Virus genome (UHGV): UHGV-1949486
Direction: 5' to 3' (one strand)
DNA: 27,630 nt
From: a virus
Positions 3,819 through 27,630 of this stretch are shown here, one piece after another. A program made the translations under genes and the position numbers. The notes under the pieces are model-generated. The model was not told the origin of the DNA. It saw only the letters and a list, made by a program, of their open reading frames with translations, and did not search any database. Position 1 is the stretch's first letter; each line of letters begins with the position of its first letter.

Positions 3819-4157
3819 TCACACCCCGCGCAGGATACGAATGACGTCGCCTTCACCCCCGGCTTCATCAAGTGCAATACCACAGGATTTACCGTCGCCG
3901 GACTGCGGCACGGCTCTGGCCTGAGCATCTGACTGAACAGCCACACCACGGCTGACAGCGGCCCCGGCCTCGACAGCAATAATGCCCAGAACGCTCACCG
4001 GCGTGCTGTCGCCGGTAACAGCATCCACTTCGGCAACCCCGAGCGCTGCGGCACCGGCTTTACAGGGGGTATTATCTGCCCCGACAAAACGCTGCTGTGT
4101 CAGTGCGGCCCCTGCCGTTACGGTTGTGATCAGAATGACCTGCTGAGTGGTTCCCAT
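3819..4157 (-). CDS. Hypothetical Ala/Gly-rich head-region protein (Mu gp35 position)
   Basis: 112-aa ORF directly downstream of the major capsid gene; no specific motif recognised. Confidence 0.4.
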   Translation of the reverse strand: MGTTQQVILITTVTAGAALTQQRFVGADNTPCKAGAAALGVAEVDAVTGDSTPVSVLGIIAVEAGAAVSRGVAVQSDAQARAVPQSGDGKSCGIALDEAGGEGDVIRILRGV

Positions 4158-4166
4158 AACGCCTCC

Positions 4167-5120
4167 TTATTTACTGATACCGGTGATGAGATACCCGGCA
4201 TCGCCACCAACCACGGCGACTTTGTAGATATCGGTATAACGGCAGTACTTCACCTTGCCACCGGCTCCGTCGTATTTGTCAGCAACAGGCATCCCCTTAC
4301 GACGCAGGGTGTAGCCGAAGGACGGCTCGTTCTCGTCCGCGCTGTCCGCCCCGGGCTGCGGTTTGCCGACATAGTGCAGCATCAGGTTGTCTCCCCAGAT
4401 ATCCGCCGGCACGCTGTCCTTATCCATTGCCGCTTTCATGGACGGCAGGGAGACAGGCGCACCGATGACGATCTCTTCGATCTGAAAGAGGTCCTGCAGG
4501 ATTTCTGTGGTGATGCGCTTGCGTTCGTTGGCTCCGATGGCAGCCTGAAGTGCCGGATGGAACTTCAGCAGCGCCATCACGCCGGCACCCATGGTCATCA
4601 GGTTAGGACGCAGCCCCGTGGCCGTACGGACCGCTTCCATACCGGCTTCAATCACCCCGATGGGGTCCCCCTTACCACCGGCCCAGCGATCACTGGCTGT
4701 CAGTTTTTTAACGTGCCCGGTACGGTAGACCTTTTGATCCTGAGCCAGACGGGCGGCGATAAGTTCACGGCGCAGGTTCACGCCATTCGTGGCGCGACGG
4801 ATGGCCTTGCTCTCTTCGTTAAACATGGACTCCGCCTGTTCGCGGTAATCCACCGGTGCTGCCAGATCGTGTTCACCCAGCACCAGATCCAGTGTGCCGG
4901 TTTTCTCACGGACCAGAACATTGCTGTCCGCCCCGACGGCACGCTCAGTGTCATATTCCACAAAGGCGGTTTTCCCGAAGGTCGGCACACGCACGCCTTC
5001 CTTGTCCGTCAGCACGACGGGGAAAATACGTTCGCCAATGAATGCGGCATTTTTATAGCCTCGGGCGATACTGGTCAGTACCGGATCAACGACACGTTTA
5101 CCTTTTAAGTAATCAGACAT
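4167..5120 (-). CDS. Major capsid protein (Mu gpT-like major head subunit)
   Basis: 317 aa, downstream of the I-like gene and upstream of gp36/gp37-like genes, as in Mu. Confidence 0.7.
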   Translation of the reverse strand: MSDYLKGKRVVDPVLTSIARGYKNAAFIGERIFPVVLTDKEGVRVPTFGKTAFVEYDTERAVGADSNVLVREKTGTLDLVLGEHDLAAPVDYREQAESMFNEESKAIRRATNGVNLRRELIAARLAQDQKVYRTGHVKKLTASDRWAGGKGDPIGVIEAGMEAVRTATGLRPNLMTMGAGVMALLKFHPALQAAIGANERKRITTEILQDLFQIEEIVIGAPVSLPSMKAAMDKDSVPADIWGDNLMLHYVGKPQPGADSADENEPSFGYTLRRKGMPVADKYDGAGGKVKYCRYTDIYKVAVVGGDAGYLITGISK

Positions 5121-9224: not shown

Positions 9225-10540
9225 CAGAATCCCTCCAGCATGCGGGCGGCTTCACGGCGGCGGCGCGAACGCGCCACCACCGGCCCTGACGGTCCGTCAG
9301 TGGCGTTAATAGCCAGAAAACAGGCCCATGTACGGTCGGCGTGACCTGCTGCATCACTTTCCGCCACAAAGCGAGGCGCTCCGGTAGGTCCGGTGATCTT
9401 ACGGAGTTTATGCAGATCACTGCGCAGTACCACATCTCCCGCCGGAATACGCAGGCGGCGGTCCTCAAACATCTCCCTGCCACGGGTCGCGAGGGTGAGC
9501 TTGTTCGGGCTGTTAAATATCACCCCCTCCACACGACTCCTGCCGTGGCGCTCCTGAGCATCTTCCACAGGCTTTTCCCCCATTCCTGTCTGATCCATAC
9601 AGCAGCGCAGCACGCGATAACGGAAAAATACGTCATCCAGCAAAGCATCCTGCTCAGCAAAGGTGGCCCGTTTACGGGTGATGATTTCCCGGGTCCAGTA
9701 GACATCCCCCACCTGTTCAAGCACCCAGATCACAAACAGGTCATTACGGACAGCAATATCCACCCCCACAAAGCAGGGGCCACCCGTATAGTGCACCGGC
9801 AGTCCGGCAGCATCGTGCTCCACGCCGTCAATCAGTTCAAACGTCAGCCAGGCCGATGCCTCATCCAGCCACTTCAGTTCAAACTCCTGTGCCCAGGCGT
9901 CATCATCGTTGAGCGCCTGTCGCATCTGTGCAATGTCACGCGGAAGGCCGTCGCGCACGGCACGGTAAATATCCACGATGTGACGTGACCAGACATTTTC
10001 AAGGGCGTTGCTGGTCATCAGTTCATAAAACTTGTTTCCCTTGCCGTTCGGCGTCGATGTCACACGCAGTCTGTAGCCGTTGGAAATGACCGGAAACAGG
10101 GCGGTCCAGATTTTGCGACTGTCGGCATGGAAGGCGAACTCATCCAGAAAGACGTTAGCCGCAAACCCACGTGCCGTGTCGGGATTTGCCGGCAGGGCCG
10201 TGATACGGGAGCCACCGGGTAACTCCACCTCAAGCATGGTGTAGCGTTCGCCGCTTTCAGCACGGTAATAACTTTCCACCTCACGGGCCGCCATCCGGTA
10301 GGCGCTGCAGTGTTTTTTCACCCCCTCCACCATGGCTTCTTTTGCCTGACGCTCCCCACGCGATAGGATCACCCAGCGAGTGCGTCCCCCTGATGCCTCT
10401 GTTTCAAAACAGTCATCAACCAGTTCCAGCGTGGTGGTGAACGTCTTGCCCGTCTGGCGGGCAAACATGCCAATCTTGAAACGGGCACGATCCAGAAACC
10501 ACGCCTGCTGGTAGGGATACAGCTGAATGGCTGCTGTCAT
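9224..10540 (-). CDS. Terminase large subunit (Mu gp28-like)
   Basis: 438 aa; Walker-A-like motif FARQTGKT near the N-terminus; D/E-rich nuclease-like C-terminal half; between gp27-like and portal genes. Confidence 0.75.
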   Translation of the reverse strand: MTAAIQLYPYQQAWFLDRARFKIGMFARQTGKTFTTTLELVDDCFETEASGGRTRWVILSRGERQAKEAMVEGVKKHCSAYRMAAREVESYYRAESGERYTMLEVELPGGSRITALPANPDTARGFAANVFLDEFAFHADSRKIWTALFPVISNGYRLRVTSTPNGKGNKFYELMTSNALENVWSRHIVDIYRAVRDGLPRDIAQMRQALNDDDAWAQEFELKWLDEASAWLTFELIDGVEHDAAGLPVHYTGGPCFVGVDIAVRNDLFVIWVLEQVGDVYWTREIITRKRATFAEQDALLDDVFFRYRVLRCCMDQTGMGEKPVEDAQERHGRSRVEGVIFNSPNKLTLATRGREMFEDRRLRIPAGDVVLRSDLHKLRKITGPTGAPRFVAESDAAGHADRTWACFLAINATDGPSGPVVARSRRRREAARMLEGF

Positions 10541-13696: not shown

Positions 13697-14467
13697 ATGA
13701 AAATGCAGACATTACCCATCGTTCCATGGATTGGTGGCAAACGCCGCCTTGCAAAACACATCCTGCCGCTGTTTCCGGCGCATGAATGTTATGTGGAGCC
13801 GTTTTGTGGGGCAGCAGCGCTCTATTTTCTTAAGGTACCCGGCAAGATCGAAGTCATTAATGATATCAACGGTGAGCTGGTGAACCTGTATCGGGTGGTA
13901 AAACATCATCTGGAAGAATTTGTACGCCAGTTCAAATGGGCGCTGGTCAGCCGGCAGATCTACAAATGGCTGCAGATCACCCCGGAAGAAACACTGACGG
14001 ATATCCAGCGTGCAGCACGGTTCTACTACCTTCAGAAGCAGGCGTTTGGGGGCAAGGTGGCGGAGCACAGCTTTGGTACCTCCACCATATCCCCGCCACG
14101 CTTCAACCTGCTGCGTATTGAAGAAGAACTGTCAGCGGCACACCTGCGGCTTTCCAGAACGGTCATAGAACACATGGACTGGCAACAGTGCATAGAACGA
14201 TATGATCGCCCGCATACGTTGTTCTACTGTGACCCTCCATACTGGGGAACGGAAGGTTATGGTGTGGAGTTCGGACTAGAAAATTATGATCATATGGCAG
14301 ATTTAGCACGCAGGATCAAAGGGAAGATGATTATATCGGTGAACGATATCCCGGAAATGCGGCAGGCATTCAACGGTCTAAATATTCAGTCGGTTGATAT
14401 CAGCTACAACCTCAAGATCACTGGCAAATCCAGTCGCAAGAAGGAACTCATTATCCTCAACTTTTGA
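13697..14467 (+). CDS. dam: DNA adenine methyltransferase (Dam-like, D12-class N6-adenine MTase), orphan
   Basis: 256 aa; FxGxG-type AdoMet motif (EPFCGAAALYF) and catalytic DPPY motif (FYCDPPYWGTEGYG); N-terminus WIGGKRRL typical of Dam; no adjacent restriction endonuclease gene. Confidence 0.85.
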   Translation: MKMQTLPIVPWIGGKRRLAKHILPLFPAHECYVEPFCGAAALYFLKVPGKIEVINDINGELVNLYRVVKHHLEEFVRQFKWALVSRQIYKWLQITPEETLTDIQRAARFYYLQKQAFGGKVAEHSFGTSTISPPRFNLLRIEEELSAAHLRLSRTVIEHMDWQQCIERYDRPHTLFYCDPPYWGTEGYGVEFGLENYDHMADLARRIKGKMIISVNDIPEMRQAFNGLNIQSVDISYNLKITGKSSRKKELIILNF

Positions 14468-15662
14468 CCGAATAGTAAGACTTCATGCAGTGAATCAAGT
14501 ACTGCATGAAGTCAAGGGCTGGTTTTGTGTACCAAAAATAAACAGTGATAGCGGTAATAATTCCCATAACTAGAACACCACGTATAATCCAGAACGTACG
14601 TTTCTGCGTGTCTAGTCGCGCAGAAATACTGCTAAATACACCAGCCACGTCATCTTTAATGAAGGAATATTCCTTATTAATCTGTTTTTCTTTGTATTCA
14701 ATTTCTTCGCCTAAGGCCTTTATAGATTGCATCTGGTTCGAAAGTGCCAGCCAGATTAACGTTGCAGCAAAAATGCATCCCAGAAGAATTATTGTGTTTG
14801 TTATCCCTTGGCCTGACCATTTCGTAGCCACTTTGAATTGGGTAGCTACGATAACAGAGGCAACAGGAATGCCAAGTATATGGTTCTGGATATCTGAAAA
14901 CGCTTTGTGGATTTTACCCATTTCTTCGACTTTTGCAGCACGCAGTTGATCCATTACTTTGTCATAAGAGAATCCAGAAGAGTAGATACGATACCCTTTC
15001 AGAAACTTTTCATGCAGACGCTGAATATTGTCCAGTAAATAAGCGAATACTAGAGGTGAATCAATTCCATCACTAACTGCTTGAATACTTTCAATCAGAA
15101 TATCTAGCTTCTGATCCTTATGGGTATCATCATTGAAACAAGCTATAAGGTTATCAAGATACTCCCTTTGCAAATTTTGTACATTTTCTGCAGCGAAGTG
15201 CGGTAATAGCTTGATAACTTCTTTTTTCAGAAAAACTAACTGACAAGTTGAGTTATCAAAGTAGGCCGCGGCCTCTTTTAGCAGGTTAACGAACTCGAGA
15301 ATCTTCCGGTAGTTGCTGATGAAAACGGGGATATCTTCATCATCATTACGAAATTTTGTTTCTAGGATGAAGTAATTAGCTGGCTCAAGGCACTGATGCT
15401 TTGGAGCATTTAGCAATTTTTCATGGGTGGAAAACACAAGTCCCAGTCCACTCCGTGGTGACGTCACACGTAGGATGATCGTGTTACCTGGAGCGATAGT
15501 GCCTGTATCAATAGAAAGACCATATTCACGAGGATCATCAAGCAAAGTATCAACCAGATCACAATCGGACTGATCTAAGAGCAACAGCGAACCGACACGA
15601 AACCCCTCTTGGAATTCCATACGACGATACAGAGCTGTCAGCATCTCAAATGAAATCGCCAC
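14457..15662 (-). CDS. Uncharacterised protein with two C-terminal transmembrane helices; downstream partner of the YejK/NdpA-like gene (candidate effector of a two-gene accessory system)
   Basis: 401-aa ORF starting 2 nt after the upstream gene stop; hydrophobic helices GITNTIILLGCIFAATLIWLALS and FWIIRGVLVMGIITAITVYFWY near the C-terminus; AT-rich codon usage unlike flanking phage genes; no family recognised by eye. Confidence 0.6.
   Translation of the reverse strand: MAISFEMLTALYRRMEFQEGFRVGSLLLLDQSDCDLVDTLLDDPREYGLSIDTGTIAPGNTIILRVTSPRSGLGLVFSTHEKLLNAPKHQCLEPANYFILETKFRNDDEDIPVFISNYRKILEFVNLLKEAAAYFDNSTCQLVFLKKEVIKLLPHFAAENVQNLQREYLDNLIACFNDDTHKDQKLDILIESIQAVSDGIDSPLVFAYLLDNIQRLHEKFLKGYRIYSSGFSYDKVMDQLRAAKVEEMGKIHKAFSDIQNHILGIPVASVIVATQFKVATKWSGQGITNTIILLGCIFAATLIWLALSNQMQSIKALGEEIEYKEKQINKEYSFIKDDVAGVFSSISARLDTQKRTFWIIRGVLVMGIITAITVYFWYTKPALDFMQYLIHCMKSYYSVKS
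14479..14513. terminator. Perfect 13-bp-stem hairpin (9-nt loop) at the convergence of dam and the 401-aa gene; candidate bidirectional terminator
   Basis: GACTTCATGCAGT gaatcaagt ACTGCATGAAGTC read directly; a T-rich tract (GGTTTTGTGT) lies 7 nt downstream on the plus strand; overlaps the last 18 codons of the minus-strand gene. Confidence 0.5.
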
Positions 15663-15664
15663 GA

Positions 15665-16672
15665 TTAAACCTCAGTCATCCACATTTCCCTAAATTCTTC
15701 AGGTACATTACGTAGGGTGATAATATTTGTTTCCGGATCATAATCAATATAGCCTTCAGTTTTCCCTTCCCGGTCAAACTTAAGTTCCCAATATTTAGAC
15801 TTGCCTTTAAAAGATACCAGAGCCCGAATGACTCGACCATCAGGAACGAAGCCATCCGATAACTCCAACTCTTCAGCAGCAAGTTTACCAGATAACTCCT
15901 CGGGAGCCTGGGGCCAAATGGCATTAACAAGGGTTTCAAGACTAAGTGGTTCACCAGCCTTACTTAGTGCATGTAAGTGTTCAAACGCACTCTTAAGAAA
16001 TGCATCTTTTTCAGCGCCGTCAAGTCCTTTCTCTGCCGCAAATGCTTTTAAAACGTCACGTAACTTTTCAGACTCTCGTTTGGCGATTAAGACATCATTA
16101 CAGCCTAGGAACTGTTTAAAATAGTTTGAAACATTACCTTGCCCCTTAAGAAAACTGATATAGCGCTCTGCGCCACTTTCCCACGCGGTTAAGTCAATGC
16201 GCCCAGCCATACGCAGCTTAGCAATATCAAGATAGGTACTATCTTGGATGTTAAAATCATCTGTGACAGTGGACCCAATGGTAGCGCTTACAATAGCTAT
16301 CAACAGGTGTTCATTGTGTCCTATCACGATATTTGCAAAAAGAACATAACCACCAGTAGCCATGTTTTCTCGCTGAGAACGTTCCGTCAGGTGATGCATC
16401 ATTCGGCAGGAACTTTGGTAGAAATCATCAACACCTTCGAGAAAGTCCCCAGCCATTCGTTCCATAGGATAGTTATCCGTATCGCCTTCAAAATAGCCAT
16501 AACCTTTACCTGTGCGTCCTGCATATTTTGCACAAATATCGTTTATAAGGCGCTGAGAGGCTTCAGTAACTAGACCTTCTTCAGGACTCAATCTCTCAGA
16601 AGCGTCTCCATTTTGTTGTTTGTCTAAAATGTGAACTACAACGTGTTTAACTTCAATGGTCTGCTCAGACAT
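15665..16672 (-). CDS. YejK/NdpA-family nucleoid-associated-protein homolog (phage-borne)
   Basis: 335 aa, same length as E. coli YejK; recognisable family blocks (HVVVHILDK, GGYVLFA, HLLIAIV, RIDLTAWESGAERYISFLKGQG) matching YejK as recalled from memory; strong AGGTGG Shine-Dalgarno 7 nt upstream of the ATG at 16672; AT-rich. Confidence 0.7.
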   Translation of the reverse strand: MSEQTIEVKHVVVHILDKQQNGDASERLSPEEGLVTEASQRLINDICAKYAGRTGKGYGYFEGDTDNYPMERMAGDFLEGVDDFYQSSCRMMHHLTERSQRENMATGGYVLFANIVIGHNEHLLIAIVSATIGSTVTDDFNIQDSTYLDIAKLRMAGRIDLTAWESGAERYISFLKGQGNVSNYFKQFLGCNDVLIAKRESEKLRDVLKAFAAEKGLDGAEKDAFLKSAFEHLHALSKAGEPLSLETLVNAIWPQAPEELSGKLAAEELELSDGFVPDGRVIRALVSFKGKSKYWELKFDREGKTEGYIDYDPETNIITLRNVPEEFREMWMTEV

Positions 16673-16742: not shown

Positions 16743-17150
16743 TTAACCCACATTTTTTAACCGCTCAATCGTTGCGGATAATTCCTTCAGTTGTTTTTCC
16801 ATCTCAATCACACGCTGTTTTTCTTCAGCGCCTCGCATGAGATCTCGCCGAACCTCAGGATCTAACTGGTTTAGAAGTTCAAGCATTTTAAGGTCTGACG
16901 GGCTGAATTGATGTTGTGTTGGTACAGCAACAATTTCTTTAGATGGAATATGTTCTTTACCGGTAAGTAGCCAATCGATTGATACACCCAAATGGGTACT
17001 TAGCGCAACAAGAGCCTCTGCGTTTGGTTCTCTCTCTCCACGCAAATAGTTTTGAAGTGAGCGATATGGAATTTTTGATAAGTCAGATAATGCCTTTATT
17101 GTCATGCCATTAGCATCCATCACTTCACGCAATCTCTCTTTTGTACTCAT
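16743..17150 (-). CDS. Prophage repressor, XRE-family helix-turn-helix (c/CI-like)
   Basis: HTH segment (MTIKALSDLSKIPYRSLQNYLRGEREPNAEALVALSTHLGVSIDWLL); divergent from the early operon; start placed at the internal ATG 17150 (MSTKERL...) because the longer ORF to 17246 would run through the early promoter. Confidence 0.7.
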   Translation of the reverse strand: MSTKERLREVMDANGMTIKALSDLSKIPYRSLQNYLRGEREPNAEALVALSTHLGVSIDWLLTGKEHIPSKEIVAVPTQHQFSPSDLKMLELLNQLDPEVRRDLMRGAEEKQRVIEMEKQLKELSATIERLKNVG

Positions 17151-17166
17151 TTGAACATATCTCAAT

Positions 17167-17194
17167 TTGACACACTCATTTGGGTGTGTACAAT
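17167..17194 (+). promoter_or_regulatory. Early promoter (Pe-like): TTGACA, 16-nt spacer, TACAAT, with an operator-like dyad ACACAC/GTGTGT in the spacer
   Basis: Hexamers read directly at 17167-17172 and 17189-17194; inverted repeat 17170-17175 / 17184-17189; sits between the divergent repressor and ner-like genes. Confidence 0.55.
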
Positions 17195-17238
17195 AGACCC
17201 AATAGAGTACATCATAACCTAACAGGAACACGGTGCAT

Positions 17239-17463
17239 ATGAACAAACAACAAGTTCGGGCACGGCTGGTTGAACGAGGCAGTAGCTTGCGCCAGTTCGC
17301 GCTTAACGCGGGCTATGAACCACGAACAGTCACCCAGGCAGTCAGTCGCTGGGCTGGTAAAAGTGAACTACCTCGCGGTCGTTTGACTTATCGGATTTTG
17401 CGAGATCTATCGGTTGCAATAGGTAAAGAAGTTACCCCCGGTATCCTTAAGGAGGCGTCATGA
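17239..17463 (+). CDS. ner: Ner-like DNA-binding protein (Mu Ner / Nlp family)
   Basis: Similarity to Mu Ner core (SLRQFALNAGYEPRTVTQAVSRW); first early gene; ATG at 17239 preferred over GTG at 17233 on AGGA spacing. Confidence 0.7.
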   Translation: MNKQQVRARLVERGSSLRQFALNAGYEPRTVTQAVSRWAGKSELPRGRLTYRILRDLSVAIGKEVTPGILKEAS

Positions 17464-18693: not shown

Positions 18694-20463
18694 ATGAATG
18701 CTGCCCTGACTGAACGACTGGTTTATGTCGCCCGCGCGGCACGTGACGCGGGGCATGGTAAACGCGGTGCAATATACGACGCTGCCTGTGCTGAACTTGG
18801 CATGTCCCGCGCCACTCTGCTGCGCAGGCTGAAGGAGGTCTCTGTGACTGATAAACGCAAAAAACGCGCCGATGCCGGGCGCAGCGCCCTGACCCGCGAC
18901 GAAGCCGCGCTGATATCTGCCACACTGCGTGAGGCCACCCGCAAGAACGGTAAGCGTCTCTATTCCATCGCAGATGCAGTGGAAACCCTGCGGGCTAACG
19001 GCTTTATCTCCGCAGGCAGAACAGATGAAACCACCGGTGAGTTTTTCCCGTTGTCCGAAGATGCCATCAGCCGTGCCCTGCGTAACTATGGCCTGCACCC
19101 GGAACAACTGGATGCCCCTGCGCCGCATACCGAAGTGGCCAGTCTGCATCCCAATCACGTCTGGCAGATTGATGCCTCGCTCTGCACGCTTTACTACCTG
19201 AGCAATGGACACAAAGGGCTGCAGGTGATGGACAGCGCGAAATTCTACAAGAACAAGCCCGCTAACCTTGCCCGTATCGCCAGTGACCGCGTGTGGAGTT
19301 ATGAGATTACCGACCATGCCAGCGGCTGGATTTACGTTGAGTATGTGACGGGTGCGGAATCCGGTGAGAACCTGTGTTCTGTGCTTATCAACGCCATGCA
19401 GGAGCGTGGCGGCGCAGACGTGCTGCACGGCGTGCCAAAAATACTCTATCTCGACCCCGGCTCGGCAAACACCGCGGGTATGACGAAAAACATGTGCCGC
19501 TCACTGGGCATTGACCTGATAGCGCACAAGCCGCATAACGCCCGCGCCACCGGACAGGTGGAAAAGGCGCGGGACATTATCGAACGCAAGCTGGAGCCGG
19601 GTCTGAAGTTCCGGCCGGTTCACAGTCTGGAAGAACTCAACGCGCTGGCCGCGAAATGGCGCAGCCACTTTAACGCCACGGCTGTTCACAGCCGCCACGG
19701 TAAAACCCGCACGGATATCTGGCTGAAGATTACTGCTGAGCAGCTGAAAAAAGCGCCTTCCGTTGAGGTATGTCGTGAACTGGCTGTGGCGGCACCAGAA
19801 CTCCGCAAAGTCACGCCAAAACTTCGTGTCTCGTTCCGGGGCACTGAATTTGACGTATCAACGGTACCGGGCGTACTGGTTGGTGAAAAACTGATGATTA
19901 CCCGTAACCCATGGCGCAGCGATGTGGCACAGGTGGTTCTGACCGGTGAGGACGGCCACGAGACGTTCTTCCTGGTCGAAGAGGTCAGAAAGAACGAGTT
20001 TGGCTTTGCTGAAGGCGCGGCGGTATTTGGCGAAAGTTACAAAGCCCTGCCGGAAACCCCGGCACAGATGGCGGCAAAAGAAACTGAAGCGCTGGTTACC
20101 GGTACAGACAACGCCGCAGATGCAGCCGCCGCACGCAAGGCGAAGGCGCTGCCGTTCGGCGGGCGGGCTGACCCGCATAAACATAACCACGAAACACTGC
20201 TGCCGGCCTATATGCCGAAGCGTGGTCAGGCCTCTGACGTACGCGGGCCGCGCACTGAACAACGTCCCATGACTCATGTGGAGGCCGCGAAAGCCCTGCG
20301 CGATAAGTTCAGCGCCGACGGCCTTACCTGGACGCCGGAACATTACCGCCAGTTAACGGCACAGTACCCGGACGGCGTACCGGAAGCCGCACTGGATGAA
20401 GTCATGGCCACGCTGACCACACCGGCCAGCAGCAGTGTTATCAGCATAGTTAACGGCAACTGA
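18694..20463 (+). CDS. DDE transposase (Mu A-like / retroviral-integrase-fold catalytic core)
   Basis: 589 aa; candidate catalytic triad blocks HVWQIDAS, ILYLDPGSANT and ATGQVEKARD in the order and spacing of Mu A D-D-E residues; followed by an ATPase gene. Confidence 0.85.
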   Translation: MNAALTERLVYVARAARDAGHGKRGAIYDAACAELGMSRATLLRRLKEVSVTDKRKKRADAGRSALTRDEAALISATLREATRKNGKRLYSIADAVETLRANGFISAGRTDETTGEFFPLSEDAISRALRNYGLHPEQLDAPAPHTEVASLHPNHVWQIDASLCTLYYLSNGHKGLQVMDSAKFYKNKPANLARIASDRVWSYEITDHASGWIYVEYVTGAESGENLCSVLINAMQERGGADVLHGVPKILYLDPGSANTAGMTKNMCRSLGIDLIAHKPHNARATGQVEKARDIIERKLEPGLKFRPVHSLEELNALAAKWRSHFNATAVHSRHGKTRTDIWLKITAEQLKKAPSVEVCRELAVAAPELRKVTPKLRVSFRGTEFDVSTVPGVLVGEKLMITRNPWRSDVAQVVLTGEDGHETFFLVEEVRKNEFGFAEGAAVFGESYKALPETPAQMAAKETEALVTGTDNAADAAAARKAKALPFGGRADPHKHNHETLLPAYMPKRGQASDVRGPRTEQRPMTHVEAAKALRDKFSADGLTWTPEHYRQLTAQYPDGVPEAALDEVMATLTTPASSSVISIVNGN

Positions 20464-20473
20464 GGAGGGAAAC

Positions 20474-21640
20474 ATGCTGGTACTGAAGCAGCAACTGAAA
20501 GAGGCCCGTATTCCACAGGCGGTGGTGGCGAGAGCTGTCGATGTTTCTGAGGCCACGCTGGCCCAGATTGTGAATCATAACGCGTGGCCCCGCACCAGCC
20601 CCGGAGAAGTGCGCCGGCGTCTTGCGTCCTGGCTGGAAAGTCAGGGGATTGATACAACGAAGAGTTTTGATGCTGTACAGGGCGCGGCCACGCCCCGTAC
20701 AGCGGGTACCACAGATAAAACGAGCCTCAGTGAGGAAGAGAATATGTTACTCAAAAAACAGGTGTTATTTCCAGCAACCAAAAAAGCGTTTGGTCTTTTC
20801 CGTGACCCGTTCGCCGACGAAGCCATGCAGGGTTCTGATGATGTGTTCACCACCCCGGATATTCGCTACGTGCGTGAGGCGTTGTACCAGACAGCCCGTC
20901 ATGGTGGGTTTATGGCCGTCATCGGTGAGTCCGGTGCGGGTAAATCCACGCTGCGCCGCGACCTGACTGAACGTATCAACCGCGAGAATGCGCCGGTAAT
21001 TGTTATCGAGCCATACATCATCGCTATGGAAGACAACGATGTGAAAGGGAAAACCCTGAAGGCAGCAGCGATTGCCGAAGCCATTATCAGTACCATCGCA
21101 CCACTGGAAAGCATCAGACGCAGTCAGGACGCCCGCTTTCGCCAGTTGCATCGCGTCCTGAAAGACAGCAGCCAGGCGGGGTTCAGCCACGTTCTGGTGA
21201 TTGAGGAGGCCCACAGTCTGCCCATTCCGACACTGAAACACCTCAAACGCTTTTTTGAGCTGGAGTCCGGTTTCAAAAAACTGCTGTCCATCGTGCTGAT
21301 TGGCCAGCCGGAACTGGCGACAAAACTGTCTGAACGCAATATGGAAGTCCGTGAAGTCGTTCAGCGCTGTGAGGTGGTCGAACTTCTGCCTCTGGACAAT
21401 AACCTTGAAGAGTTTCTGACGTTCAAACTGCAACGGGCCGGTAAACAACTGACGGACATTATGGACGCCAGCGCAGTGGATGCCATACGTGCCCGCCTGA
21501 GCAATCCGGGAAGTCATCGTAAAAATATGGTCAGCCTGCTGTATCCGCTGGCCGTCAGTAACCTGGTAATAGCCGCCATGAATCTGGCCGCTGAAATCGG
21601 GGTTCCACAGGTCAACGCTGACGTTGTCAAAGGGGTTTAA
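20474..21640 (+). CDS. Transposition ATPase (Mu B / TniB-like AAA+ protein)
   Basis: 388 aa; Walker A GESGAGKST and Walker B-like HVLVIEEAHSL; N-terminal HTH-like segment; immediately downstream of the transposase. Confidence 0.8.
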   Translation: MLVLKQQLKEARIPQAVVARAVDVSEATLAQIVNHNAWPRTSPGEVRRRLASWLESQGIDTTKSFDAVQGAATPRTAGTTDKTSLSEEENMLLKKQVLFPATKKAFGLFRDPFADEAMQGSDDVFTTPDIRYVREALYQTARHGGFMAVIGESGAGKSTLRRDLTERINRENAPVIVIEPYIIAMEDNDVKGKTLKAAAIAEAIISTIAPLESIRRSQDARFRQLHRVLKDSSQAGFSHVLVIEEAHSLPIPTLKHLKRFFELESGFKKLLSIVLIGQPELATKLSERNMEVREVVQRCEVVELLPLDNNLEEFLTFKLQRAGKQLTDIMDASAVDAIRARLSNPGSHRKNMVSLLYPLAVSNLVIAAMNLAAEIGVPQVNADVVKGV

Positions 21641-24671: not shown

Positions 24672-25121
24672 ATGCAGAAAAAACGCCTGATACAGCTTAT
24701 CCATATTGCCCGTAATGAACTGGGTATGGATGAAGACACCTACCGCCAGATGTTACAGGGGCTGACCGGTAAAGCCTCAACCAAAGGAATGGATACCACA
24801 CAACTAAACTGCGTGCTGGAATCCATGAAAAAGAAAGGCTTTCGCGTTAAACCAGCCAGAAAAGCCAGCTCCGGTTTACCGCTGGATAACCATCCGCAGT
24901 CCAGGAAAATTCGTGCGCTATGGCTTGAAATGGCTGCTGCCGGCATTGTTCGTGACCGTTCAGAAAATGCATTAGCGCGGTGGATCAAGCGGGAAACGGG
25001 CATCAGCGCCCTGCGCTGGCTCAATACTGAACAGGCAAGCAGTGTTATTGAGAAACTGAAGAAGTGGCAGCACAGAGCTGCGGGAGTAAAACATGAGCGA
25101 CCTGAATCAGTTTCGAAGTAA
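24672..25121 (+). CDS. gemA: GemA-like regulatory protein (Mu gp16 / DUF1018 family)
   Basis: 149 aa; N-terminal LIQLIHIARNELGMDEDTYRQMLQGLTGKAS...KKGF pattern typical of Mu GemA; located just upstream of mor as in Mu. Confidence 0.7.
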   Translation: MQKKRLIQLIHIARNELGMDEDTYRQMLQGLTGKASTKGMDTTQLNCVLESMKKKGFRVKPARKASSGLPLDNHPQSRKIRALWLEMAAAGIVRDRSENALARWIKRETGISALRWLNTEQASSVIEKLKKWQHRAAGVKHERPESVSK

Positions 25122-25491
25122 AGGGCCGGAACTCCTGGTGGAGCTGGCACAGCATACCTCTGAGACCGTTCGCGAGATTATTGATATTGAGCCCGCAATT
25201 GCCGACCAGATTGGTCAGGCCGTCGCGAACCGAATGATGCAGGTCTGGGGCGGGCAAAACGTTTATTTCCCGATGGGCATGGTATGGAAGGTCAGTCAGC
25301 GCGACCGGGAAATCTTCAGGGAGTTTAACGGACGCAACCACCACGAACTGGCCCGCAAGTTTGGTGTTTCGCTTCAGTGGGTCTACAGCGTGGTTAAGCG
25401 GGTCAGAAAAGAAGAACTGGATCGGATGCAGGGCAGGTTGTTTGATGAAGATCTGCCAGAGGAGACGAAAGACGTTAACAAATCCAGATAA
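25093..25491 (+). CDS. mor: Mor/C-family transcriptional activator (Mu Mor-like)
   Basis: 132 aa; C-terminal blocks GGQNVYFP and FREFNGRNHHELARKFGVSLQWVYSVVKRVR match the Mor/C family HTH region; last gene of the early operon. Confidence 0.8.
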   Translation: MSDLNQFRSKGPELLVELAQHTSETVREIIDIEPAIADQIGQAVANRMMQVWGGQNVYFPMGMVWKVSQRDREIFREFNGRNHHELARKFGVSLQWVYSVVKRVRKEELDRMQGRLFDEDLPEETKDVNKSR

Positions 25492-25535
25492 TTCCTGCTT
25501 GTTAAAGTCCTTTCAAAAATCTCCTTATTGTATAA

Positions 25536-25567
25536 AAGCACGGTAGACCCCTTACCGTGCTTTTTTT
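25536..25567 (+). terminator. Rho-independent terminator closing the early operon
   Basis: Perfect 10-bp stem AAGCACGGTA / TACCGTGCTT with 7-nt loop, followed by a run of seven T; 45 nt after the mor stop. Confidence 0.75.
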
Positions 25568-25605
25568 ATGCTCTCTCTTTAGTATTCAGGATGCAGGGAG
25601 AAAAT

Positions 25606-26238
25606 ATGTTTGACGTTTCGTTGTTAAATCTGCCATGGGCAACACTGGTGACCCTGACCAGTGGCTATATTGGGTATTTTATTGCGAATGTGGGACTGAA
25701 GGATCACCACAAGCCCATTGAGGTGACTTTTTCTTCGCTGATTTTTGGCCTGACAGCAATGATGGCTTACCAGGCTGTTATGTGGGCAGGTCTGAATGCC
25801 TGGCTGGCAACACCACCAGCACTTCTGTGTGCCGTTACATGCGGTGCGTGGTGGCGCAGGTACGGTCGCAAATGGATGTACAGATTACTGTGGAATAATG
25901 ATGTTTCATGGTCTGACGATACCAGCTCAGCATGGCAGGCAATGTTTGATCAAACAGGCTTCAGCGTTACCGAGGTCAGAGTGATTCTTCGCGATGGTTC
26001 CGGTATGATGTCACGGCTGCCAGGGAACTTTGAAGAGTGGCCTAACGGTCCGTTTACCCTGGGGAATAAAGGCGATATGGTTCTTTACGTCACGCACAGC
26101 AGCCCTTCAGGCAGTAACGAATGGGAAGAGTATAAAGGCGTGGTTGATAAGTACTGGGGAGCTCTGGCAACCTATATTCCAGCAGATCAGATTGCCAGAG
26201 TGGAGATCAGGCGCGTTCGTGCAACGAACGATGAATGA
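25606..26238 (+). CDS. Membrane protein of unknown function; terminal moron-like accessory gene
   Basis: Start moved to ATG 25606 (GGGAG Shine-Dalgarno) because the ORF-track start 25528 would translate through the terminator hairpin; about 210 aa with two to three N-terminal hydrophobic helices and a soluble C-terminal domain; lies between the terminator and the prophage end. Confidence 0.55.
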   Translation: MFDVSLLNLPWATLVTLTSGYIGYFIANVGLKDHHKPIEVTFSSLIFGLTAMMAYQAVMWAGLNAWLATPPALLCAVTCGAWWRRYGRKWMYRLLWNNDVSWSDDTSSAWQAMFDQTGFSVTEVRVILRDGSGMMSRLPGNFEEWPNGPFTLGNKGDMVLYVTHSSPSGSNEWEEYKGVVDKYWGALATYIPADQIARVEIRRVRATNDE

Positions 26239-26556
26239 TGTTTATTTTTTCCCTGGGGCAGGGGCTGCCGGCATAGTGGTTTTATTGGCAGAGGAAGACG
26301 ATTCTCCTTTTCTACCGGAATCGCGCTCGAACGTCACGATGTGCTTGCTTTTGGGCTTTTCTGAGTAATCCAGGCTATCATGCTTATTGTTTTGAGTAGT
26401 CATTGGAATCATCCTTTTTGTTGCGGGTCATGTTTCAGCAAACTCGATTCTAAGTTGCCAGGAAGGATGATTTCAATGCCCGACTTATCTATCGTATAGC
26501 GGAAAAGAATTTCAGTTCTGTTCACCAGAACCCATGTTAACCCACTCCAATTCGTT

Positions 26557-26589
26557 ATTTATCTCACGGATCCCCCTTCATTTATCTCA
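26557..26589 (-). repeat. Prophage terminus: two direct copies of a 10-bp motif (TGAGATAAAT on the minus strand) 23 bp apart; candidate transposase-binding end sites; element ends in CA at 26589
   Basis: ATTTATCTCA read at 26557-26566 and 26580-26589; from the end inward the sequence begins 5-prime TG like Mu ends; the host-like permease frame continues from 26590. Confidence 0.5.
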
Positions 26590-26664
26590 TGTCTGATCAC
26601 CTTTGCACCGAAATCCTGGCCTGCTGCTATCGACTGGCACACCATCATCACCTTAAGCGGCCTG

Positions 26665-27630
26665 ATGCTGCTGACCAAAGGTGTCGAGTTAAGCGGTTAT
26701 TTTGATGTGCTGGGGCGCAAAATGGTGCGCCGTTTTGCTACGGAGCGTCGGCTGGCGATGTTTATGGTACTGGCGGCAGCGCTGCTTTCTACCTTTCTGA
26801 CCAACGATGTCGCACTGTTTATAGTTGTTCCGCTGACTATCACGCTAAAAAGACTGTGTGAGATTCCGGTTAATCGGCTGATTATTTTTGAGGCGCTGGC
26901 AGTCAACGCTGGTTCGCTACTGACGCCAATTGGCAACCCGCAAAATATTCTTATCTGGGGACGTTCTGGTCTTTCGTTTGCCGGATTTATTGCCCAAATG
27001 GCACCGCTGGCTGGCGCAATGATGCTGACACTCCTGCTGTTGTGCTGGTGTTGTTTCCCTGGAAAGGCGCTGCAATACCATACGGGGGTGCAAACGCCGG
27101 AGTGGAAACCGCGGCTGGTGTGGAGTTGTCTGGGGCTGTATATCGTCTTTCTGACGGCGCTGGAGTTAAAACAAGAGCTGTGGGGACTGGTGATTGTGGC
27201 GGCGGGCTTTGCGCTGCTGGCGCGTCGTGTGGTGCTCAGTGTGGACTGGACGCTGCTGCTGGTGTTTATGGCGATGTTTATCGACGTCCATTTACTAACC
27301 CAACTGCCAGTTTTGCAGGGGGTGTTAAGTAACGTGAGTCATTTATCCGAACCCGGATTATGGTTAACGGCGATCGGTTTATCGCAGGTGATCAGTAACG
27401 TGCCGAGTACCATTTTGCTGCTCAATTATGTGCCACCGTCTTTATTACTGGCATGGGCGGTAAACGTGGGGGGCTTTGGTTTATTACCCGGATCGCTGGC
27501 AAATTTGATTGCGTTACGGATGGCGAACGATCGCCGTATCTGGTGGCGTTTTCATCTTTATTCGATACCGATGCTGTTGTGGGCGGCGCTGGTGGGATAT
27601 GTTTTGTTGGTTATGATCCCGGCGGGATAA
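26665..27630 (+). CDS. ArsB/NhaD-superfamily inner-membrane permease (YbiR-like), host gene; probably 5-prime truncated by the prophage insertion
   Basis: 321-aa ORF made of successive hydrophobic helices; different base composition from the prophage; same frame stays open upstream to about 26500 with no start codon, encoding ...FAPKSWPAAIDWHTIITLSGLMLLTKG; family assignment from memory. Confidence 0.6.
   Translation: MLLTKGVELSGYFDVLGRKMVRRFATERRLAMFMVLAAALLSTFLTNDVALFIVVPLTITLKRLCEIPVNRLIIFEALAVNAGSLLTPIGNPQNILIWGRSGLSFAGFIAQMAPLAGAMMLTLLLLCWCCFPGKALQYHTGVQTPEWKPRLVWSCLGLYIVFLTALELKQELWGLVIVAAGFALLARRVVLSVDWTLLLVFMAMFIDVHLLTQLPVLQGVLSNVSHLSEPGLWLTAIGLSQVISNVPSTILLLNYVPPSLLLAWAVNVGGFGLLPGSLANLIALRMANDRRIWWRFHLYSIPMLLWAALVGYVLLVMIPAG

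Follow-up and report, generated by a model that had tools for sequence, protein, structure and literature searches.

Ends, target duplication, and candidate transposase-binding sites of a BcepMu-like prophage in ybiR of Escherichia coli

The locus and its genes

The window, that is, the whole stretch of 27,630 nucleotides analysed here, holds phage genes followed by the 3' part of the bacterial gene ybiR (Table 1). The phage genes are laid out divergently, with late genes on the minus strand and an early arm (repressor, TnpA, TnpB, Gam, GemA, and Mor) on the plus strand; the repressor ORF itself lies on the minus strand where the arms part. Its tabulated coordinates are those of the maximal ORF, and relatives annotate a protein of about 135 aa. 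The AAA+ ATPase TnpB, Gam, GemA, and Mor are present as an adjacent early-gene set, with Phage_Mu_Gam and GemA falling on neighbouring ORFs. Comparison of the ORF map and of the annotations of four relatives (L003-L006) with the BcepMu record reveals the two-arm organisation of BcepMu together with P2-like tail genes. The prophage is of the BcepMu/B3 transposable (Mu-like) type, an ordinary case of an element type that is already known. Its end is carried by 254 of 5426 complete E. coli genomes (~5%) with varying flanking genes, and the flanks of these other copies include mdfA, rstB, kefF, irp1, ptsP, clbG, and a P2 prophage. The gene rstB was considered as an insertion hotspot and rejected as a general one because only two lineages are disrupted there among 5421 genomes. 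Literature searches returned no papers on a Mu-like prophage in ABU 83972 and nothing useful on phage PhiKM.

Table 1. Features of the prophage, its Mor-proximal end, and the adjoining host gene (window coordinates)
Feature	Position	Strand	Basis or remark
cI-type HTH repressor	16743..17246	-	Pfam HTH_3 + Phage_CI_repr; divergence point of early and late arms
TnpA, 589-aa DDE transposase of BcepMu/B3 (Tn552/IS481-related) type	18694..20463	+	Pfam rve; phrog_310 transposase
TnpB, 388-aa AAA+ ATPase (ExeA/AAA_22), MuB-like partner	20474..21640	+	AAA_22, E 4e-20; phrog_296 'DNA transposition protein'
Mor-family late transcription activator	25093..25491	+	Pfam PF08765, E 1e-43
210-aa accessory ORF, no assigned function	25606..26238	+	phrog_12870
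53-aa ORF, no assigned function, WP_001571575.1	26242..26403	-	phrog_15726; PGAP-annotated in L003-L006; reads inward
Sigma-70-like promoter match, TTGAAA-18-TAGAAT, 10/12	26447..26476	-	consensus scan only; upstream of 53-aa ORF
Putative terminator, hairpin + T-rich tail, reading inward	26514..26532	-	consensus scan only
Second 23-bp unit, site 2: GGGGGATCCGT-GAGATAAAT-AAC	26554..26576	-	core 26557-26565; contains first ATTTATCTCA
Terminal 23-bp unit, site 1: TGATCAGACAT-GAGATAAAT-GAA	26577..26599	-	core 26580-26588; contains second ATTTATCTCA
Terminal CA dinucleotide, true Mor-proximal end	26598..26599	+	identity among copies at other loci stops after 26599
Target-site duplication, right copy, CCTTTG (6 bp)	26600..26605		left junction in L016-L019 vs intact gene
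Host gene ybiR, 3' part, nt 89-1119 of 1119	26600..27630	+	100% identity to ybiR of FDAARGOS_536 from 26600
Residual 321-aa ORF from internal Met52 of YbiR	26665..27630	+	ORF list

Beyond Mor lie the 210-aa ORF, which an earlier sequence-only reading had called a terminal moron, and a stretch that the same reading took to be about 350 bp free of ORFs. That stretch contains the 53-aa minus-strand ORF, which PGAP annotates in all four relatives examined; the exact protein occurs on at least 1000 contigs, and a Pfam search gave no match for it. The terminator-like hairpin is also found in a plasmid remnant. Phages PhiKM, KP12, and Phi06_2974 B showed no match to the region past ~25450. The hairpin, the promoter-like site, and the 53-aa ORF could make up an unrecognised end-proximal unit for control or insulation that is specific to an enterobacterial lineage.

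The right end and the disrupted gene

The Mor-proximal end of the prophage is position 26599, where the phage DNA (...ATTTATCTCATGTCTGATCA) closes in ...TGATCA. Up to and including this base, dozens of E. coli genomes with unrelated flanks carry the phage DNA at 100% identity. Prophage-free relatives, the comparison that the sequence-only reading had called for, diverge from the window throughout the sequence that precedes 26600. The end had been placed at the CA that closes the second repeat, at 26589; it lies 10 bp further out, and ybiR begins at 26600.

The product of ybiR is an anion transporter of the CitMHS/ArsB type. Alignment with the intact gene shows that its first 88 nt are missing from the window, in agreement with the earlier description of a permease gene truncated at its 5' end and devoid of a start codon before 26665. 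Codons 1-29 and one base of codon 30 belong on the other side of the prophage. Upstream of the ATG at 26665 the frame contains no start codon and is open as far as a TAG at 26497-26499. That 34 codons of phage DNA extend it without a stop is by chance, and calling the truncated gene in-frame means nothing further. The identical 321-aa product is called by gene callers both here and in a prophage-free nonsense allele of ybiR, and because that allele also circulates naturally, the disruption is probably of small consequence. The right junction of the window recurs in two separate assemblies (L008 and L015). Exact-pattern scans found it once in metagenome_contigs and not in viral_contigs or genome_contigs, and an insertion in ybiR like the present one occurs in 0 of 5426 complete E. 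coli genomes.

The left junction and the target duplication

Exact-pattern scans of viral_contigs, genome_contigs, and metagenome_contigs gave no match to the predicted left junction, which was then reached by way of a predicted fusion peptide. A 44-aa ORF joining the start of ybiR to phage sequence, as predicted from a 6-bp duplication, is present in public assemblies, and the protein collection does not contain the 31-aa fusion that a duplication of 5 bp would give. The junction found in this way consists of the 5' part of ybiR, CCTTTG, and then TGATGCGCCGCGCGATAAATG..., and the event is therefore a simple insertion. Four contigs (L016-L019) read mntR, ybiR nt 1-94, TGATGCGCCGCGCGATAAATG..., and then genes for a Gin-like invertase and tail fibres; at the junction itself ...ttcgttc is followed by CCTTTG and TGATGCG..., and intact ybiR has one CCTTTG. 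Transposition into a host transporter gene, as had been suggested, is thus borne out by ybiR nt 89 onward in the window and nt 1-94 at the left junction elsewhere. The contigs that supplied the two junctions differ, as do their samples, and none comes from the window's own source.

The loss of the 5' part of ybiR might also go back to a deletion, an inversion, or a chimeric assembly next to a prophage: transposable phages can delete or invert neighbouring DNA, the window holds one junction only, and the pattern scans of the three contig collections were empty for the left one. Such a secondary origin is nevertheless very improbable, given that the left junction appears with the 6-bp duplication and with mntS-mntR upstream in native order in four independent contigs, and that the right junction is seen in two other assemblies.

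The target duplication had been expected to measure 5 bp. It measures 6 bp in all five insertions examined (ATTATT, ATTTGT, ATTTGC, GCTGGT, and CCTTTG), and the termini of the element read 5'-TG...CA-3', with TGATGCG... on the left and ...TGATCA on the right in four full prophages, with which the right end in the window agrees. Transposases of the B3/Tn552 family have a 6-bp footprint, Mu- and B3-like phages have TG...CA ends, and classical Mu makes 5-bp duplications (PMC8705779). The duplication is of 6 bp rather than 5 because the enzyme is of the B3/Tn552 type and not MuA. The second repeat does end in CA, and together with the 5-bp duplications typical of classical Mu (PMC8705779) this could be read as a Mu-type element that stops at 26589, duplicates 5 bp, and is followed by host permease DNA from 26590. 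We consider this exceedingly unlikely: the bases at 26590-26599 (TGTCTGATCA) are absent from intact ybiR and 100% identical at every other insertion, both the five duplications and the choice between the two fusion peptides favour 6 bp, and the transposase is without MuA-specific Pfam domains.

Integration at the end of a host gene is common among prophages, and ybiR could in the same way be the specific attachment site of an integrase-dependent prophage. To this we assign next to no likelihood, as the phage end abuts dozens of unrelated loci and the flanking repeats, which are 6-bp duplications, vary in sequence and share no att core. Besides the DDE transposase, the only recombinase is a small (190-aa) Gin-like serine invertase whose gene adjoins the invertible tail-fibre genes. 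The preferred reading remains insertion by transposition.

The terminal repeats

The two copies of ATTTATCTCA lie exactly where the sequence-only reading had put them, at 26557-26566 and 26580-26589, 23 bp apart from start to start, and are the sole exact copies in the window. A degenerate form of the core, GMGATAWWT, likewise occurs at these two places only when both strands of the 27.6 kb are searched; the chance of an exact match to this strict core is about 1 in 32,768 per position. Each copy forms the core, GAGATAAAT on the other strand, of a 23-bp unit; the two units lie side by side and take up the final 46 bp of the prophage. An inverted copy of the terminal motif had been predicted for the opposite end, and two matching units are present there in inverted orientation, the cores of the two ends being GAGATAAAT/GCGATAAAT. 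At each end of the E. coli prophage, counted from the tip, TG and 9 nt accordingly lead to G[A/C]GATAAAT at 12-20, which recurs at 35-43, and the two ends are inverted relative to each other. The ends of BcepMu and B3 can be brought under the same description with a slightly relaxed core, TG, 9 nt, and G[AC]GA[TA]A[AT][AT]N at 12-20 and 35-43, to which most sites in the three phages conform exactly; those of B3 fit the shared core more loosely, and one is displaced by about 1 nt. The KP12 record, which is partial and starts ~56 nt inside the end, and the permuted record of phiE255, which opens at the terminase, were unsuitable for the comparison of ends.

A 10-mer repeated within 10-30 bp is unremarkable alone, since at least one is found in ~40% of Markov-simulated windows. 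The repeats are significant because of their terminal position, their inverted counterpart at the other end, and their conservation in BcepMu and B3. On these comparisons they are probable transposase-binding sites, as had been proposed, and should be treated as candidates. That they are instead operators or promoter parts of the 53-aa ORF, Mor-dependent elements, or the product of chance has in its favour the frequency of such repeats in simulation and the closeness of a promoter-like match and a small ORF, but seems to us quite improbable. The same core, distance from the tip, and 23-bp spacing recur inverted at the opposite end, where no homologous ORF exists; BcepMu also carries the core at each end, as B3 does in a looser version, despite different end-proximal genes; and the promoter-like match lies ~80 bp further inside rather than over the repeats. 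A third site at each end was looked for and is not claimed, because the matches have 2 mismatches and lie at distances that differ between the ends (105/109 vs 121/149).

Site 1 begins GAGA at the Mor-proximal end and GCGA at the opposite end in all three genera compared. This conserved asymmetry could let transposable phages with Tn552-type enzymes distinguish their two ends. Both ideas, that the asymmetry of site 1 would mark the ends and, separately, that the inward-facing module of hairpin, promoter-like site, and 53-aa ORF would act as a control or insulation unit, are speculative, and we regard them as doubtful.

The transposase and a model for insertion

In an alignment covering 98% of its length, TnpA is 68% identical to BcepMu gp09; identity to its counterparts in B3-like phages, again over 98% or more, is ~57%. 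It has a generic rve core and showed no MuA-specific domain in Pfam and no match to MuA among solved structures by sequence. Alignment of its core with Tn552 p480 points to D160, D254, and E290 as the proposed catalytic residues. TnpA is a DDE enzyme, probably related to those of Tn552 and IS481, and not MuA.

By analogy with Mu and Tn552, the N-terminal part of the 589-aa TnpA would bind the four end sites and pair the two ends, after which the enzyme would nick just past the terminal CA, leaving two 3'-OH ends to attack the target at points 6 bp apart. TnpB, the AAA+ ATPase, would deliver the target. In ybiR the phage went in by DDE transposition between nt 88 and 95, with duplication of CCTTTG; such a duplication would be completed by repair during infection or by replication during lytic growth. 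Protein binding at the repeats and the chemistry at the ends are here modelled on those systems; some other factor that acts at the ends might in principle use the conserved cores. Taken together, it is very probable that positions 1-26599 of the window are the larger part of a BcepMu-like transposable prophage of ~38.8 kb from E. coli, and that it has inserted into ybiR, with TnpA acting at the terminal sites as the proposed mechanism. The observation that prompted the analysis is partly confirmed, and its interpretation is supported as right in substance.

The significance of the finding hardly goes beyond correct annotation. What the analysis provides is base-exact ends for a BcepMu-like prophage, TGATGCG... 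and ...TGATCA. The 6-bp duplication rule and the four-site end motif can be used to delimit such prophages automatically and can help in building mini-elements. The end layout of 2 x 23 bp is common to E. coli, Burkholderia, and Pseudomonas phages and offers a substrate for the biochemistry of a little-studied transposase family.

Comparison with known systems

The closest parallel is BcepMu, a Burkholderia phage of the genus Bcepmuvirus, in which the early genes for Mor, GemA, a TnpB-like ATPase, and TnpA also run on one strand to one end, and the lysis, head, and P2-like tail genes lie on the opposite strand from this early arm. The published gene order of BcepMu (Summer et al. 2004, summarised in PMC2771037) agrees with that of the E. 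coli phage. Its ends are also TG...CA, with G[AC]GATA[AT][AT]T cores at 12-20 and 35-43 at both ends in an identical architecture, although the core is mostly ...ATATTT in BcepMu and ...ATAAAT in the E. coli phage, and the hosts differ (Burkholderia vs E. coli). Between Mor and the end, the 210-aa and 53-aa ORFs give the E. coli phage ~1.1 kb of additional cargo, compared with 364 bp in BcepMu. At the far end of the E. coli phage a Gin-like invertase accompanies an invertible tail-fibre segment, where BcepMu has an acyltransferase; BcepMu is reported to be without a tail-fibre inversion system (PMC2771037).

Pseudomonas phage B3 (Beetrevirus) shares the transposase family, the 6-bp duplication, and the TG...CA ends (PMC8705779). 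In B3, too, Mor adjoins one end and the cores lie near the same positions at both ends. B3 differs in being a siphovirus with other late genes and in its more degenerate end cores (GAGAAATAC, GCGAAATTT).

Coliphage Mu is likewise a temperate transposable phage that inserts at random, duplicates a short stretch of its target, has TG...CA ends, and carries several transposase sites at each of them (candidates in the E. coli phage). Homologues of Gam, GemA, and Mor occur in both phages, as does an invertible tail-fibre segment of the Gin type. They differ in that Mu uses MuA and makes 5-bp duplications, whereas the E. coli phage makes 6-bp duplications and has two clear sites per end; Mu has three transposase sites per end. 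The early arm of the E. coli phage is also inverted relative to that of Mu.

The relationship to Tn552 is more distant. In BLASTP, TnpA matches Tn552 p480 (pN315, Staphylococcus aureus) weakly and over the catalytic core only (23% identity, 144 aa, E 5e-5), with the WQxD, DxGS, and E motifs aligned. The best non-phage plasmid matches of TnpA are IS481-family transposases (~26% identity), a tblastn search with TnpA gave no Staphylococcus record among the matches listed, and the homologue in BcepMu is annotated as 'Tn552/IS1604 rve transposase'. Tn552 differs from the phage in being a small resistance transposon with a resolvase. In pN315 the transposon is rearranged, and that copy showed no long terminal inverted repeats; a literature search likewise found no paper confirming the figure of 23 bp for Tn552. 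The Tn552 transposase binds two directly repeated 23-bp motifs per end and makes 6-7-bp duplications. Such a two-motif layout would correspond to the 2 x 23-bp arrangement in the E. coli phage.

The prophage terminus and the interrupted ybiR gene

The permease gene cut by the prophage is ybiR, which encodes an anion transporter and, when intact, begins with an ATGA overlap on mntR. As the sequence-only reading described, its frame is open without a start codon before an internal ATG, and the open stretch extends back to a TAG inside the phage. Alignment to an intact copy, with 100% identity wherever the two overlap, puts the restart of host DNA at 26600 (ybiR nt 89); the preceding base differs. 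The sequence up to 26599 has full-length 100% matches in dozens of complete E. coli genomes, and elsewhere in E. coli the phage end is flanked by mdfA, rstB, kefF, irp1, ptsP, clbG, a flagellin gene, a P2-like prophage and others. In the four E. coli genomes with junctions read, identity ends right after ...ATTTATCTCATGTCTGATCA. Since ybiR homology runs from 26600 and identity at other loci reaches 26599, the terminus is placed at 26599, 10 bp beyond the CA of the second terminal repeat that had been taken as the end of the element.

The insertion deprives ybiR of its first 29 codons and parts it from mntR, leaving a 321-aa ORF that starts at Met52 and is reported by gene callers. In prophage-free contigs, among them L007 (~9880-9890), codon 17 of ybiR has mutated from TTA to the stop codon TGA, and because this allele gives the same 321-aa product call, it suggests that ybiR is dispensable.

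Table. Features of the window
Feature	Position	Strand
Variable cargo region, lysis genes to repressor	13697-16672	
tnpA (589 aa)	18694-20463	
Mismatch cluster inside tnpA	~20167-20202	
Variable cargo slot, Mor to end	25452-26599	
53-aa ORF	26242-26403	minus
Sigma-70-like promoter match, 10/12	26447-26476	minus
TAG bounding the open permease frame	26497-26499	
Terminator-like hairpin	26514-26532	minus
ATTTATCTCA, first copy	26557-26566	
ATTTATCTCA, second copy	26580-26589	
ATG of the permease frame	26665	

The opposite end and the target duplication

Because the first base of the window already lies about 12 kb into the prophage, the other end was read in relatives. In four complete prophages, 37.6-38.8 kb long, it begins TGATGCGCCGCGCGATAAATGC(A/G)CTCTATCTTGTGCGATAAATGGC, with duplications of ATTATT, ATTTGT, ATTTGC and GCTGGT, all 6 bp. 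For the ybiR insertion, the left junction was predicted together with its small ORF, made up of ybiR codons 1-31, then VMRRAINALYLVR and a stop. The exact sequence of this 44-aa ybiR-phage fusion occurs on about 10 contigs in the public protein collection, from which the 31-aa peptide expected under a 5-bp duplication is absent. A homology search with the fusion protein led to four contigs whose DNA reads mntS, mntR, ybiR nt 1-88, CCTTTG and TGATGCGCCGCGCGATAAATGCAC..., followed by Gin-like invertase and tail-fibre genes. The right junction in the window reads ...TGATCA[CCTTTG]CACC..., the same junction is present in two further assemblies, and CCTTTG is single in intact ybiR. With both ybiR junctions found and CCTTTG duplicated, the proposed transposition into a host transporter gene is borne out; the phage inserted by simple transposition and duplicated 6 bp, CCTTTG, in place of the 5 bp that had been expected. 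The two junctions come from different contigs, and it is safe to infer that they flank one prophage in one genome. The reading of a prophage end in a transporter gene was essentially correct, and the present analysis mainly corrects its coordinates and duplication length.

Three of the left-junction contigs, all from metagenomes (L017 to L019), end inside or just past the tail-fibre segment by the Gin-like invertase, as a population mixed for invertible-segment orientation would produce. Over 9-11 kb, the two further right-junction assemblies depart from the window only by 11 mismatches within 36 bp inside tnpA, a cluster that resembles a small recombination patch or assembly variant.

Architecture of the phage ends

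The two ATTTATCTCA copies are exact and 23 bp apart, as had been claimed. There is no third exact copy within the window, and the degenerate core GMGATAWWT, searched on both strands of the 27.6 kb, occurs at the same two places only. At least one 10-mer pair spaced 10-30 bp apart arose in about 40% of first-order Markov simulations of the window, so the repeat is unremarkable alone and outside support is needed. At the opposite end of the E. coli prophage, the inverted copy of the terminal motif is present, again with two cores. In each E. coli end, TG occupies positions 1-2 and the cores lie 23 bp apart.

Table. Phage ends read from the tip inward (core 1, positions 12-20; core 2, positions 35-43)
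End	Tip	Core 1	Spacer	Core 2
E. coli Mor-proximal (window)	TGATCAGACAT	GAGATAAAT	GAAGGGGGATCCGT	GAGATAAAT
E. coli invertase-proximal	TGATGCGCCGC	GCGATAAAT	GCACTCTATCTTGT	GCGATAAAT
BcepMu Mor-proximal	TGAAGAGAGGT	GAGATATTT		GCGATATTT
BcepMu far end	TGAAGCGCGGC	GCGATATTT		GCGATAAAT
B3 Mor-proximal	TGAGAGAGAGT	GAGAAATAC		GCGATAAAG
B3 far end	TGTAGCGCGGC	GCGAAATTT		displaced ~1 nt

The cores and their positions are conserved, while the inter-core sequence is not. By chance, about one position in 32,768 would match the strict core GMGATAWWT exactly; the B3 cores fit it more loosely. This layout is the pattern expected of protein-binding sites at a fixed distance from a cleavage point, and its retention at E. 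coli, BcepMu and B3 ends favors the repeats as candidate transposase-binding sites. The KS10 paper mentions putative transposase-binding sites earlier described for BcepMu (PMC2628397). Nothing convincing was found for a third site at the ends. Comparison of the window phage, the E. coli M-17 prophage, BcepMu and B3 also reveals an asymmetry in all three phage genera, with site 1 (the outer unit) starting GAGA at the Mor-proximal end and GCGA at the opposite end.

Cargo regions and other insertions

The roughly 350 bp thought to lack ORFs in fact hold a 53-aa minus-strand ORF, PGAP-annotated in every relative examined. It corresponds to PHROG 15726 (phrog_15726), is found on at least 1000 contigs and has no known function. 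Just inside the phage end, a terminator-like hairpin, a sigma-70-like promoter match and this conserved ORF follow one another in inward-reading order, a module that might shield the phage against read-in transcription or code for a small regulator. The stretch from Mor to the end, with a 210-aa ORF (phrog_12870) and the 53-aa ORF, is unmatched in PhiKM, KP12 and Phi06_2974 B and is a variable cargo slot beside the terminus. A second variable cargo region, from the lysis genes to the repressor, contains a Dam methylase, a 401-aa protein of no known function and a 335-aa NA37 nucleoid-associated protein; relatives hold other genes there, such as a KAP NTPase fragment in L005, another full prophage.

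In rstB, two independent insertions lie 17 bp apart in opposite orientations, in ABU 83972 and M-17, with duplications ACAAAT/ATTTGT and GCTGGT. As rstB is disrupted only in these two lineages among 5421 genomes, the pair reflects either coincidence or a very local preference. In E. coli AR_0085 (L003, ~3852-4356 and ~41951-42408), the prophage sits inside lysB of a P2-like prophage, a phage within a phage, with the duplication ATTATT. On the large plasmid p11PC-191kb (L022 end, L002 1-68), beside IS3 and IS1 fragments, ~170 bp remain of a related Mor-proximal end, including both ATTTATCTCA copies; the tip of this remnant is shorter by 2 nt (...TCATTGATGCA). Short matches of 80-90% identity are common on plasmids (~105 places).

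Transposition machinery and proposed mechanism

In Pfam, the transposase TnpA matches the generic rve integrase core alone. It shares 68% identity with BcepMu gp09 and ~57% with transposases of B3-like Pseudomonas phages; among plasmid-borne sequences, IS481-family transposases come closest to it. No MuA-like match was found by sequence among solved structures. A weak alignment of the core with Tn552 p480 (23% identity, E 5e-5) places the putative catalytic residues at D160, D254 and E290. TnpA is adjoined by TnpB, a 388-aa AAA+ ATPase and MuB counterpart, after which come Gam, GemA and Mor.

The boundaries, duplication, inverted two-site ends and homology are established directly. By analogy with Mu and Tn552, the transposase would bind the four 23-bp units, pair the ends and nick 3' of the terminal CA; target phosphates 6 bp apart would then be attacked by the 3'-OH ends. 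The target would be supplied by TnpB, and the gaps would be filled through repair or replication.

Relationship to known transposable phages

The element belongs to the BcepMu/B3 group, transposable phages whose transposase is related to that of Tn552; the group has been known since 2004 and was widened to many prophages in 2018 (cited in PMC5977238 and PMC8705779). The duplication footprint is 6 bp in the B3/Tn552 family versus 5 bp in Mu (PMC8705779). Related phage records from E. coli and Klebsiella include PhiKM, Phi06_2974 B and KP12. The published account of BcepMu gives two divergent arms, a Tn552/IS1604-type transposase, a terminal CA and P2-like tails (PMC2771037), and the window phage agrees with it in gene order. 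The window phage differs from BcepMu in its Gin-like invertase and invertible tail-fibre segment, in a core of ATAAAT rather than mostly ATATTT, and in the ~1.1 kb of cargo that separates Mor from the end, a stretch of just 364 bp in BcepMu.
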